Assembly (NCBI RefSeq): GCF_038025025.1
Contig: NW_027117340.1
Span: 496,001 to 560,000, forward strand
Length of the DNA: 64,000 nt
DNA from: Phyllosticta citribraziliensis
Lineage: Eukaryota
Direction: 5' to 3'
Below the pieces are notes generated by a model. The model had not been told where the DNA came from, did not search any database, and saw only the letters and a list, made by a program, of their open reading frames with translations. The translations under genes were made by a program, and so were the position numbers. Of the stretch, positions 4,860-7,475 are shown piece after piece; position 1 is the stretch's first letter, and each line of letters opens with the position of its first letter.

Positions 4860-5664
4860 ATGGCTCCCAAGATCGCCATCATCTACGTGAGCTCCCCCTA
4901 GTTACCCCGCTCAAGCTATACGAGCTCCAATTGAGCTGCCAAATACTGATTCTTGTGTCTCTGGCCAGTACTCCATGTACGGCCATGTGAAGCAACTCGC
5001 ATTGGCTGAGAAGGAGGGCATTGAGGCCGCTGGTGGCTCTGCAACCCTTTTCCAGTACGCAACCCGTCAACACTGAATACAAGGCCTGTGTCTAACGATT
5101 TGACAGGGTTGCCGAGACCCTCCCCCAGGAGGTCCTGACCAAGATGCACGCTCCCCCCAAGGATGAGAGCATCCCGGTCCTTGAAGACCCTGCCGTCCTC
5201 GAGCAGTTTGACGGCTTCCTGTTCGGCATTCCCACTCGCTACGGAAACTTCCCCGCGCAGTGGAAGACTTTCTGGTACGTCTGGCACGAGCAACGCCACT
5301 AGCTAAACATTTCGATGCTCATTCTATCTCCAGGGACAAAACTGGCGGCCAATGGCAAACTGGCGCCTTCTGGGGCAAGTACGCCGGTCTCTTCATCTCG
5401 ACGGGCACGCTCGGCGGCGGCCAGGAGACGACGGCCATCTCGGCCATGTCGACCCTTGTGCACCACGGCATGATCTACGTCCCGCTGGGCTACAAGACCG
5501 TGTTCCCCTACATGGCCAACGTCGAAGAGGTTCGCGGTGGTTCGCCCTGGGGAGCTGGCACCTTTTCCGCCGCCGACGGCTCGCGCCAGCCTTCCAAGAA
5601 CGAGCTCGAGGTGGCCAAGGCTCAGGGCACCGCCTTTTACCAGACCCTCGCCAAAGTGGCGTGA
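4860..5664 (+). CDS. Flavodoxin-like NAD(P)H:quinone oxidoreductase (WrbA/Pst2/Ycp4, Alt a 7-like), 203 aa; exons 4860-4886, 4969-5054, 5107-5274, 5334-5664; probable readthrough extension to 5847
   Basis: The spliced product is [16 protein letters not shown]...[30 protein letters not shown]...[12 protein letters not shown]...[10 protein letters not shown]...GSRQPS, which carries the family signatures. Three GT-AG introns restore the frame. Confidence 0.95.
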
Positions 5665-6500
5665 CTAGATGGCAGCGCGGCGGGCGCCATTGAGAATGGC
5701 GCGGGCAAGAAGGAGGACAAGCCCATTGGTGCTGTTGCCTCCCCTGAGACGCAAAAGAACACTCCTGCAGGTGGTGAGCCAAAGGGCAAAGCCAAGTCTG
5801 AGAAGAGCGGTCCTTGCGGTCTTCCTACTAAATGCGAAGTAATGTAATTGGAAAAATCAAACAAATATTCCTGGAGAAACTCTGCCAGTTTTGGTGAAAG
5901 ATCTACATGCAATCGTGCTGGCTCCATGAGGACTGAAAGACTATCAAATCCCGTGAGGGGCGGGCTAAGCCGAAAGGAAATACTACCTCAACAACCTCCT
6001 CGATACGACCAAGGAACGCAAGTAGGTGCCACGCCCATCGAAACGTGCACGATGATGGTTTAGACAGAGATTCATAACCGAAACTTCCCGTGGCTCTTTC
6101 CATGCTGCCAGCGCCCGCATGACATCTCGAACAAACCCTTGGCGCATGTCCGGATATTCCAAGACAGAGTCTATTCGATTACCGCGGAGAGAAGGCTGCA
6201 GGATTGGAGATCTACCGGCTTGTCGTACAGCGGCAAAATTTTGACTGAAAATAGTTAGGATTTCGGGGCGGAGAGGGAGCAAGGAGTCGAGTTGCCTAGG
6301 CAAAGGCTCTTGTAGCCACCAAACTTGGCTGCTGCAGTCGTCATTCAGACGTGTCGGAAAACGACCAGCACGCACGCTGACGCTGGATGCACAGAAAGAC
6401 CGCAGGGAATAATATTCGCCACGTTGAATTGGATAGACTTTCGCAGGGCACCACTTTCTACGCCCTCCGTGCCGTCGACCAGATTTTGCGGGCAATTCTC

Positions 6501-7475
6501 CTAATTATGAGACGACGAATTGGTCTGTTGGCCCACCATCTCCTTGATGGTCTGCTCCAGGGGCTTCGGGATCCTCCCGTGCTTCTCAAGCAATTTCTCC
6601 AATATGGGATCCTTGTTTTCGGCCTCGCCGTCGACGATGGCGTCGTACGTCTTGGCCCACCAACGAATGTAGCTCGGCTCCAGGTCTCTTTCGATGTAAT
6701 GGCGTTCGTGCTCCTGGCGGCCAACCGTCTTGACTGCCAAGCGAGGGCCGTCGCCGTCGCCCCTGGCGTTGGACACGATTGCGGCGATTTCGTTCAGACC
6801 GTGTGCATTGTTGGTCGTGGAGAGGGACACAGTAATTCCAGAATAGCGGGAGGGCTCGTCTGTCAGAATCATCGCCGTGCCGAGGCCCAGGTCGTCAATG
6901 GCAGCCCAGCTGATGATGCCGTCGCCAGCCAGGACGATTTCAGATCTTTTCTCCGTCGGCAGCTCATAGTAGTGGCCTAGATACAGCGGCCACGACTCGT
7001 TGTACAGCCCCTCGCGGATAATGGTGAAGCCCGTGTCGGTGAGCATTTGCAGGAACTCTTCGGTGCGGTTGTGGGCCTTCATGACGCCGCTCTTGCTATT
7101 GCTCTTGAAGCCCAGGGAAGTGTAGTAGATGTGCTTGATTCCCGCGGAGCGCGCAGCCTGCACTGCGGCAAAGTGGTGAGCCTCTCGCCCTTGTCCATAC
7201 GGCGCGTCGTCGAAATCCATGCTGATCCGCGGCGTCGATACTAGCAGCAGCCGCTCGCCGCCCGCAAACGCCGCTCGCATCGAGTCCGGGTCATCGTAGG
7301 AGGCCTGTCTGACTTGGACGCCGCGCGCTTTGAAAGAATCCCAGTGCTGCGATGAGGGGCTCGAGGATGTCGAGACCACAATCTCGTGAGGCGGGACCAG
7401 GTTGTATTTGAGGAGGTTGTGCAAAACGGCGCCACCCAGCTTGCCCGAGGCGCTGGTGATGACCAACTTTGGCAT
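6501..7475 (-). CDS. NmrA-like / atypical SDR NAD(P)-binding protein (QOR2/YtfG-like), intronless
   Basis: N-terminal Rossmann motif LVITSASGKLGG, plus GERLLLVS, AGIKHIYYTS, HNRTE, FTIIREGLY and GDGIISWAAIDDLG. Confidence 0.85.
   Translation of the reverse strand: MPKLVITSASGKLGGAVLHNLLKYNLVPPHEIVVSTSSSPSSQHWDSFKARGVQVRQASYDDPDSMRAAFAGGERLLLVSTPRISMDFDDAPYGQGREAHHFAAVQAARSAGIKHIYYTSLGFKSNSKSGVMKAHNRTEEFLQMLTDTGFTIIREGLYNESWPLYLGHYYELPTEKRSEIVLAGDGIISWAAIDDLGLGTAMILTDEPSRYSGITVSLSTTNNAHGLNEIAAIVSNARGDGDGPRLAVKTVGRQEHERHYIERDLEPSYIRWWAKTYDAIVDGEAENKDPILEKLLEKHGRIPKPLEQTIKEMVGQQTNSSSHN

Follow-up and report, generated by a model that had tools for sequence, protein, structure and literature searches.

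Probable readthrough of a conserved UGA-CUA(G) stop codon into a CaaX-ended tail in a flavodoxin-like quinone reductase gene of the Pezizomycotina

Known systems and their relation to the reductase gene

Readthrough of UGA stop codons in fungi, by which cryptic peroxisomal targeting signals of type 1 (PTS1) are appended to enzymes, was reportedly described by Freitag et al. in 2012. The present analysis concerns an arrangement of a similar kind in a stretch of 64,000 nucleotides (nt) from Phyllosticta citribraziliensis (contig NW_027117340.1, positions 496,001 to 560,000; hereafter the window, whose own numbering is used throughout). A gene at positions 4860-5847 (+ strand) encodes a putative flavodoxin-like NAD(P)H:quinone oxidoreductase, and its stop codon TGA (5662-5664) is directly followed by CTAG (5665-5668) and by an open frame that ends in a CaaX prenylation box. 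It is very likely that programmed readthrough at UGA-CUA(G) appends this prenylation tail to the enzyme, and that it does so across classes of the Pezizomycotina.

In Ustilago maydis, other fungi and animals, glycolytic and other enzymes acquire cryptic PTS1 signals through readthrough at UGA-CU(A)(G) (Stiebler et al. 2014, PMC4207609), and readthrough at this element was shown by mutagenesis in Ustilago and in human cells (PMC4207609). The sequence TGA CTA G of the window agrees with the element: the stop UGA is followed by CU, and the enhancing letters A and G are present at +3 and +4. The reductase gene has the stop codon and its 3' context in common with these enzymes, and it would follow the same logic, in which one gene gives a major short cytosolic form and a minor form with a C-terminal targeting signal. 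An evolutionary exchange with splicing is also found in both cases, here in the form of an intron in a Sordariales-like lineage. The differences lie in the signal, which is a CaaX lipid-anchor box for a membrane and not a peroxisomal PTS1, in the extension, which comprises 44-99 amino acids (aa) with a conserved motif of its own, in a context extended to CTR-SAT-GG, and in a Pezizomycotina-wide distribution within one enzyme family.

UGA-CUAG is likewise the context of the vertebrate readthrough genes OPRL1, OPRK1, MAPK10 and AQP4 (Loughran et al. 2014, PMC4132726). In human cells, UGA-CUA alone permits about 1.5% readthrough, and flanking signals raise this value to about 31% (PMC4132726). 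CUAG right after UGA and a deep conservation of both motif and coding signature are shared with the reductase gene, but the vertebrate genes are unrelated to it, their extensions possess no lipidation signal, and the efficiencies were measured outside fungi. Prenylation signals were predicted in the readthrough extensions of Drosophila Syx17 (PMC3840789) and Arabidopsis MT1C (bioRxiv 10.1101/2021.11.09.467898). As in the reductase, the CaaX-type signal occurs there only in the readthrough product; in the passages cited, however, these are single-species motif-server predictions in unrelated proteins, for which no prenylation test is reported, whereas here the CaaX box is kept across fungal classes, in 55 clusters of tails at 70% identity.

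Within the enzyme family itself, Ycp4 of C. albicans carries about 90 additional C-terminal aa that terminate in a CAAX box (PMC4556627), Ycp4 of S. cerevisiae is listed among the Erf2 palmitoylation substrates (PMC5364179), and flavodoxin-like proteins (FLPs) are located at the plasma membrane (PMC4556627). An earlier note on this stretch, prepared from the letters alone, had mentioned a Ycp4-type yeast paralogue with a C-terminal extension ending in lipidated cysteines, and these passages agree with that statement. Ycp4 and the reductase described here belong to the same enzyme family, possess an extension with lipidatable cysteines and share the association of the family with the plasma membrane. 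They differ in that Ycp4 is a separate gene with an uninterrupted open reading frame, while here the short and the long form share one gene that is split by a TGA. By analogy, the tail of the reductase would be Ycp4-like in function, but it is not encoded in a Ycp4-like manner.

The earlier note also knew of no description of readthrough-encoded prenylation in this family. A literature search, with subscription journals and bioRxiv supplements outside its scope, found no paper linking readthrough to Ycp4, Pst2 or flavodoxin-like proteins. The mechanism proposed belongs to the known UGA-CU(A)(G) readthrough class; the extended context is possibly new.

Conservation of the stop, its context and the coding tail

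The stop TGA, the CTAG, 60 in-frame codons (5665-5844), which translate as LDGSAAGAIENGAGKKEDKPIGAVASPETQKNTPAGGEPKGKAKSEKSGPCGLPTKCEVM, and a second stop TAA (5845-5847) were found exactly to the base as the earlier note had given them, and with the same translation. The letters CTA GAT GG (5665-5672) directly 3' of the stop represent the readthrough context. The 60-codon extension consists of a hydrophilic linker, which includes the peptide EDKPIGAVASPETQK, and of a conserved end. This end is formed by the motif G-P-C-G-L-P-T-K (5809-5832), the Cys of which is a candidate second lipidation site, and by the CaaX box C-E-V-M (5833-5844). The long form would thus comprise 264 aa with the C-terminus ...KSGPCGLPTKCEVM, and its CaaX Cys is located exactly four residues from the C-terminus (CEVM-TAA).

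The G+C content is 0.64 up to about position 5744, 0.52 over 5745-5834 and 0.39-0.40 just past the TAA, and two further open frames run across the stretch of the tail, one on the + strand (5669-5842, 57 aa) and one on the - strand (5665-5856, 63 aa). Since the region has 59-64% G+C and harbors these two other frames, the open frame of the tail in the window alone is no more than chance expectation. The significance of the tail therefore lies solely in the comparison with relatives.

Upstream of the stop, the short product of 203 aa is encoded by four exons, and the translation of the last exon is 100% identical over the aligned region to an annotated protein of 203 aa from Phyllosticta citribraziliensis (P0005; lineage Dothideomycetes, Botryosphaeriales). 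P0005 matches the families PF03358 FMN_red (44.2 bits, cut-off 24) and PF00258 Flavodoxin_1 (33.1 bits, cut-off 25). Among solved structures, yeast Pst2 is the nearest (5mp4, 'Protoplast secreted protein 2', E 4e-75, residues 3-201), and the next is WrbA of E. coli (2r96, E 1e-49). The protein is therefore most probably a flavodoxin-like NAD(P)H:quinone oxidoreductase of the WrbA/Pst2 type, and the assignment in the earlier note to a flavodoxin-like quinone reductase was sound. WrbA and Pst2 form tetramers. A Pfam search with the last exon and the tail alone yielded no family, and the tail itself belongs to no Pfam family.

Relatives were collected by scanning metagenome contigs for DNA back-translations of GPCGLPxKC, a search which is blind to the upstream sequence and to the frame. 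It gave at least 118 loci; all counts of relative loci given here (118, 100, 83, 84 and 74) derive from the motif matches listed, and only genes carrying that motif entered the collection. In 100 of the 118 loci, exactly three codons separate the motif from a stop, and the other 18 resemble chance matches. A tblastn search with the domain part of the enzyme placed its C-terminal end 5' of the motif, and on the motif's strand, in 83 of these 100 loci. In 74 of these 83 the tail lies in the frame of the domain with exactly one intervening stop, and among the nine out-of-frame loci five merely have an extra intron just before the ...VNF-TGA-CTN junction. The frame of the tail, which the earlier note had proposed to check, is thus conserved in relatives, and so is a stop context of the readthrough type.

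The context could be assessed in 84 unique tails, which remained of the 100 after subtraction of eight truncated loci and exact duplicates. The junction reads TGA-CTN in 74 of the 84 tails (CTA 48, CTG 18, CTC 7, CTT 1), and CTAG follows the TGA in 39 of the 74. CTA thus occupies 48 of 74 junctions, compared to 36 of 468 Leu codons (7.7%) in the remainder of these genes (Fisher 4e-27). Going upstream from the tail, one meets TGA as the first in-frame stop in 79 of 84 cases, but TGA terminates the tail itself in only 22 of 84 (8e-21; the others are TAG in 39 and TAA in 23). For the 74 TGA-CTN loci alone, the post-tail stop is TAG in 37, TAA in 21 and TGA in 16. A similar bias was found at the codon after the Leu, which is GAT in 35 loci, CAT in 20 and GAC or CAC in none; the ratio NAT:NAC is 55:0 at this second codon versus 207:239 elsewhere (2e-17). 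The letters GG follow the second codon in 54 of the 74 loci. The resulting consensus is TGA-CTR-SAT-GG, and the window has TGA-CTA-GAT-GG. As the preferences for CTA and NAT concern synonymous positions, they reflect constraints on the RNA rather than on the protein. The conservation in the 74 loci reaches past the published UGA-CUA-G motif and includes synonymous sites to at least +8. Grouped at 90% identity, the 74 tails give 64 clusters; the number is 55 at 70% and 21 at 50%.

The tails also show a coding signature past the stop. Their length ranges from 44 to 99 aa (median 60.5). The ratio of nonsynonymous to synonymous substitutions (dN/dS) in the tail was 0.06-0.29 in the eight of ten disjoint pairs with computable dS, the pairs being drawn from 35 loci with at least 150 stop-free bases upstream. 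The pooled ratio of the corresponding proportions (pN/pS) was 0.32 for the tail versus 0.28 for the last 50 codons of the domain. Stops occur in the other two frames in 59 and 70 of the 74 tails. Judged by these values, the tail is under purifying selection in the relatives, which agrees with the interpretation in the earlier note.

These data bear on the possibility that the tail is not translated at all and represents a conserved element of the 3' untranslated region, or a relic of an ancestral long gene which acquired a stop. That other frames are equally open in the window alone would fit this explanation, and it is true that we infer the translation itself. A relic, however, would decay, while 74 of 83 loci retain an intact frame interrupted by one stop only. 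Neither the low dN/dS, which resembles that of the enzyme domain, nor the stops in the other frames, nor the precise end of the tail in a CaaX box and a stop would be expected of an untranslated sequence. Moreover, the stop has been selected as the leakiest type in the leakiest context. An untranslated tail is therefore extremely unlikely.

Transcripts, annotated proteins and the intron-type lineage

Four RNA runs were considered. X1 and X3 match the window almost perfectly, whereas X8 and X9 are RNA-seq data of plant material holding relatives. Contigs of X1 and X3 carry all three intron joints of the gene, which identifies these contigs as RNA. Exon 1 (4860-4886) starts with the ATG at 4860-4862 (MAPKIAIIY) and is joined to exon 2 by a joint 4886->4969 in X1 and X3, which removes intron 1 (4887-4968, 82 nt). 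Exon 2 (4969-5054) has joints at both ends and a translation that agrees with P0005; intron 2 (5055-5106, 52 nt) is removed by the joint 5054->5107 in the same two runs. Exon 3 (5107-5274) is defined by joints in RNA contigs and by the reading frame, and intron 3 (5275-5333, 59 nt) is removed in all four runs. All three introns are of the GT..AG type. The coding part of exon 4 for the short form (5334-5661) ends with ...AKVA, and together with the stop this exon covers 5334-5664.

The TGA is kept in the spliced transcripts. Contig 11 of X3 spans 5499-5862 with 0 differences to the window, contig 15 of X8 and contig 21 of X9 span 5447-5856 without gaps, and contigs of X1 span 5557-5665 and 5697-6300+. 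The contigs of the four runs contained no joint removing the TGA, no alternative letter at 5662-5672 and no A>G at 5664, and the differences of the relative from the window start only at 5674. Splicing or base editing at the stop, which the earlier note had wished to see excluded, was therefore not found in these contigs, and transcripts cover the whole tail. In a low-depth contig from a more distant relative, the alignment resumes at 5659-5679, and this piece carries TGA-CTAGATGG. The apparent skips 5591->5659 and 5679->5794 in low-depth contigs of this relative (side 21) are not deletions; these stretches are too divergent to align.

Similar evidence comes from eight of the relative loci (L029, L033, L036, L052, L054, L055, L063 and L078), which show an uninterrupted open reading frame of 203-204 codons from Met to stop, followed by the tail. 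They are located on contigs of 1.0-1.6 kb, seven with TGA-CTN and L078 with TGA-TCG. Related loci, for example L053, contain introns; the eight intronless loci look like transcripts.

In run X3, RNA contigs have loose ends at 5275 and 5507, where they turn into similar but different coding sequence within exons 3 and 4. This observation suggests at least one expressed reductase paralogue in the same organism.

A word search with the tail alone led to one cluster, consisting of Phyllosticta 'flavoprotein-like proteins' of 251 aa. It comprises nine sequences from five named species and one Logan sequence, and it mixes models of 203 aa ending with ...KVA with long models of 251 or 259 aa. The tail of the window is 82% identical to the annotated long models of Phyllosticta, which correspond to the short protein plus the tail minus the stop. 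The models of 259 aa (P0007, P0009) lack the five codons *LDGS, equal to a GT..AG 'intron' of 15 nt (5661-5675), and those of 251 aa (P0002, P0004) lack 13 codons, equal to a GT..AG 'intron' of 39 nt (5656-5694). Hence, the genus has kept both the stop and the tail, and the annotators bridged the stop. Long models of other genera omit varying amounts around the junction, which suggests that the removal of the junction codons is a systematic annotation artefact.

If one of these tiny introns were removed in some transcripts, the tail would be joined by alternative splicing and not by readthrough. The annotated proteins of 259 and 251 aa match exactly such deletions, and a related lineage possesses a real intron at the junction (L046, L050 and L067), with P0309 as a contiguous spliced form. 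But no corresponding joint occurs in the four RNA runs, although these show the three genuine introns and their contigs run through the region without gaps; for this reason, the micro-intron reading of the GenBank models was rejected. Furthermore, 15 and 39 nt are far below the lengths of the real introns of this gene (52-82 nt), and the base before the TGA is G in only 36 of the 74 relatives, so that there is no conserved GT. Splicing would also demand neither the continuity of the frame in 74 of 83 loci, nor a TGA, nor CTA and NAT at synonymous sites. In addition, the eight full-length intronless reading frames retain the stop, and annotators removed different amounts, as is expected of predictors stepping over a stop. 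Alternative splicing of a stop-containing intron is thus highly improbable here.

Hardly more probable, and still very unlikely, is A-to-I editing of the mRNA, which would convert UGA to UGG (Trp) in some transcripts, for instance during sexual development, and so yield the long form. In filamentous ascomycetes, stop-loss editing at particular developmental stages occurs widely (323 genes in Fusarium graminearum, PMC4817773), a functional case is described for DBF2 (PMC13123824), and editing would likewise explain a conserved in-frame tail. The stop-loss events reported are however UAG->UGG, and in the passages cited the edited sites favor U at -1 (85.7%, versus 5% for G) and A or G at +1 (with C at 6.9%), and editing within a GAC triplet is rare (PMC4817773); here the A lies within G-A-C. 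Editing also provides no reason for the near-exclusive TGA or for the downstream CTA and NAT-GG, which fit a readthrough element. Neither the fold of the window nor those of the relatives gave a hairpin signal, and A>G at 5664 is absent from the four RNA runs, even though contigs hide minor variants. Recoding of the UGA as selenocysteine was rejected as well: no Rfam family, and thus no SECIS, was found at E <= 1 in 5400-6500, and fungi are without the machinery (PMC4207609).

Beyond Phyllosticta, the last 110 residues of the 259-aa model, used as a query, matched long forms in many Pezizomycotina. These forms comprise about 240-260 aa and invariably terminate with G-P-C-G-L-P-x-K-C-a-a-X. A search of a representative library with the whole 259-aa model was dominated by matches to the enzyme domain and added little on the tails. 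A profile of 51 tails matched 64 proteins at E <= 1, all of which belong to the reductase family by Pfam domain or by name. We take all 59 named matches to be Pezizomycotina by their genera (Dothideo-, Leotio-, Eurotio-, Sordario- and Lecanoromycetes); three lineages were checked. No yeast, Saccharomycotina or basidiomycete protein was among the 64 matches, but with a tail that is short and of low complexity such a miss is weak evidence, and this also holds for the question of whether the tail is homologous to that of yeast Ycp4.

Four gene calls on metagenome and Logan contigs (P0013, P0014, P0034 and P0285) show W at the junction, and P0013 and P0034 additionally show W just past the CaaX box. 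These proteins were evidently called under a code with TGA=Trp, an artefact which reveals that Leu follows an in-frame TGA. The reading frame of P0013, on a contig of 1349 nt, is full-length and intronless, and its W-LDGS junction is identical to that of the window. In P0282 (JGI contig, 231 aa) the corresponding sequence is ...NFA-R-LQGS..., with Arg at the position of the TGA in relatives; in this lineage, a sense codon may occupy the readthrough site. Fungal annotations appear to be systematically wrong at this site, as the tail is missing, pseudo-introns of 15-39 nt are introduced or, in metagenome calls, the TGA is read as Trp.

A different arrangement was found in five unique loci (L022, L046, L050, L067 and L088) and, by eye, in L095. 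In these, the domain end ...FGA is followed by a canonical intron of about 56-90 nt with a CTAAT branch site. Its 5' splice site overlaps the stop of the short form (GC|GTAAAT or G|GTGCGT in L046, L050 and L067), and its AG places the tail in frame. P0309, a contiguous reading frame of 250 aa on a contig of 1058 nt, shows the spliced junction, and models of the Podospora type do likewise. Hence, a Sordariales-like lineage (domain end ...AKAFGA) attaches the same tail by splicing and not by readthrough; retention of the intron would yield the short form. As the Fusarium-like locus L033 is of the TGA type, the Sordariomycetes contain both arrangements.

The CaaX end and the putative placement at the membrane

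The residues G, P, C, G, L, P and K of the end motif are invariant in an alignment of 51 tails (A3), which is partly so by construction because the loci were collected with that motif; in an independent set of proteins (A2) the end motif is nearly invariant. In the CaaX box, all 74 relatives have I, V or L at a2, each box being directly followed by the stop. X is L in 28, M in 21, S in 16 and Q in 5 tails and A, T, V and I in one each, so that 71 of 74 possess one of the canonical residues L, M, S, Q or A. CDIM (13) is the commonest box, and the others include CEIM (6) and CEIL (5). Residues at X determine the assignment to farnesyltransferase (FTase) or to geranylgeranyltransferase type I (GGTase-I). 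With X = M, the CaaX rules presumably make CEVM a box that is farnesylated.

In a yeast FTase screen, CEVM obtained values of 1.67 (Ydj1 EF), 4.46 (Ydj1_HM) and 13.8 (Ras_HM), and CKQX variants with values of 3.57-5.35 were prenylated, whereas those with 1.77-1.97 were unprenylated (PMC10320760). According to these passages, CEVM is within the score range of prenylated variants of the screen. The fixed end in 100 of the 118 motif matches is in agreement with the CaaX box described in the earlier note.

It is conceivable that the tail is translated by readthrough without serving as a membrane anchor. It might act as a degron which lowers the dose of the enzyme, as a signal for another compartment or as a protein-binding peptide, and the Cys-x-x-x would then remain unprenylated. 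Invariance in the tail is greatest in GPCGLPxKC rather than in the last three residues, a pattern that could indicate a binding motif; destabilising readthrough extensions are documented (PMC13123824); D or E is frequent at a1, as in CDIM, CEIM and CEIL, and D is described as restrictive for yeast FTase; and lipidation of the tail is predicted from sequence. On the other hand, the distance from Cys to stop is fixed at three codons in the 100 loci, a2 is aliphatic throughout, and 71 of 74 tails have at X a residue that is canonical for FTase or GGTase-I. CEVM and CDIM both score like modified variants in the yeast screen (PMC10320760), and yeast Ycp4 ends in a CAAX box or is palmitoylated, with FLPs at the plasma membrane (PMC4556627, PMC5364179). 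A role other than that of an anchor is thus unlikely, though less so than the explanations discussed above.

According to the mechanism proposed for readthrough with prenylation, one mRNA would give rise to two proteins. Most ribosomes would stop at the UGA (5662-5664) and release the soluble subunit of 203 aa. Because UGA-CUA-GAU-GG is a context of weak termination, a minority of ribosomes would insert an amino acid and read 60 more codons. The tRNA inserting at UGA would be near-cognate and deliver Trp, Cys or Arg. The extended product would be an isoform of 264 aa with a disordered hydrophilic linker. Its CEVM Cys would be farnesylated, after which the end would undergo trimming and methylation. 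A Lys-rich patch and the conserved Cys that precedes the CaaX Cys by six residues may constitute a second membrane signal, as in Ras. Long subunits, alone or in mixed tetramers with short ones, might then hold the enzyme at the plasma membrane. The rate of readthrough, the residue inserted, the prenylation or palmitoylation and the tethering of mixed tetramers are, like readthrough itself, proposed parts of this mechanism.

FLP quinone reductases shield fungal plasma membranes from lipid peroxidation and matter for the virulence of Candida (PMC4556627). The route by which the enzymes of filamentous fungi reach the membrane is not obvious from annotated proteins of 203-205 aa, and a readthrough anchor would supply one. 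We lean slightly towards a broader view, in which UGA-CUR-SAU-GG readthrough is an ancestral, class-spanning way of placing the quinone reductase at the plasma membrane of filamentous ascomycetes. One gene would provide soluble and prenyl-anchored subunits, and the leakiness of the stop would set the share of membrane-bound tetramers. The same end would be reached by the Ycp4 paralogue in yeasts and by an intron in the Sordariales-like lineage, so that readthrough, intron and paralogue would be three interchangeable solutions to one problem. If this is true, the tail would be the first deeply conserved lipid anchor encoded solely by stop-codon readthrough, and functional readthrough in fungi would extend from peroxisomal targeting to lipid anchoring. 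NAU-GG at +4 to +8 after CUR would then be a new readthrough determinant, possibly tunable by stress or oxygen. The 74 unique junctions, which correspond to the 55 clusters at 70% tail identity, are a natural data set to refine the readthrough context.

Several points weigh against readthrough with prenylation. First, translation past the UGA is a step that we infer. Second, all RNA evidence comes from assembled contigs, which drop rare variants and reveal neither poly(A) sites nor levels, so that a minor spliced or edited form may exist. The depth of X1 is about 900 on the contig 5697-6300+ and about 16,000 on the coding exons, and a major poly(A) site or 3' end inside the tail could account for this. 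However, depth is given as one figure per contig, so that the drop in X1 is not readable locally and allows no conclusion on poly(A) sites or isoform levels. Third, the collection of relatives is limited to genes with the tail motif. Fourth, 10 of the 84 loci deviate from TGA-CTN, namely the five of the intron type, two error-laden copies (L040 and L041) and one locus each with TAA-CTC (L032), TAG-ACC (L035) and TGA-TCG (L078). Fifth, dN/dS was derived from gap-free columns only, and two of the ten pairs were saturated. Sixth, D at a1 is called restrictive for FTase in the yeast screen (PMC10320760), and yet CDIM is the commonest box of the relatives. Finally, no stimulatory RNA structure was detected around the stop in the fold of the window (z = -0.06), and the 80 nt downstream of the stop in 70 relatives gave no structure signal either (mean z = -0.02; upstream -0.44).

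The extended conservation of NAT-GG (+4 to +11) is thus not accounted for by RNA structure in the relatives. The loci L040 and L041 are inverted copies of a gene of the TGA-CTA-G type on one contig of 4448 nt and are frameshifted relative to L064 and L114; this pair is probably an assembly artefact.

Outside the reductase gene, a convergent neighbour at 6504-7475 (- strand) encodes a putative NmrA-like NAD(P)-binding protein (PF05368, 45.9 bits), and its 3' end is located about 650 bases from the reductase gene.

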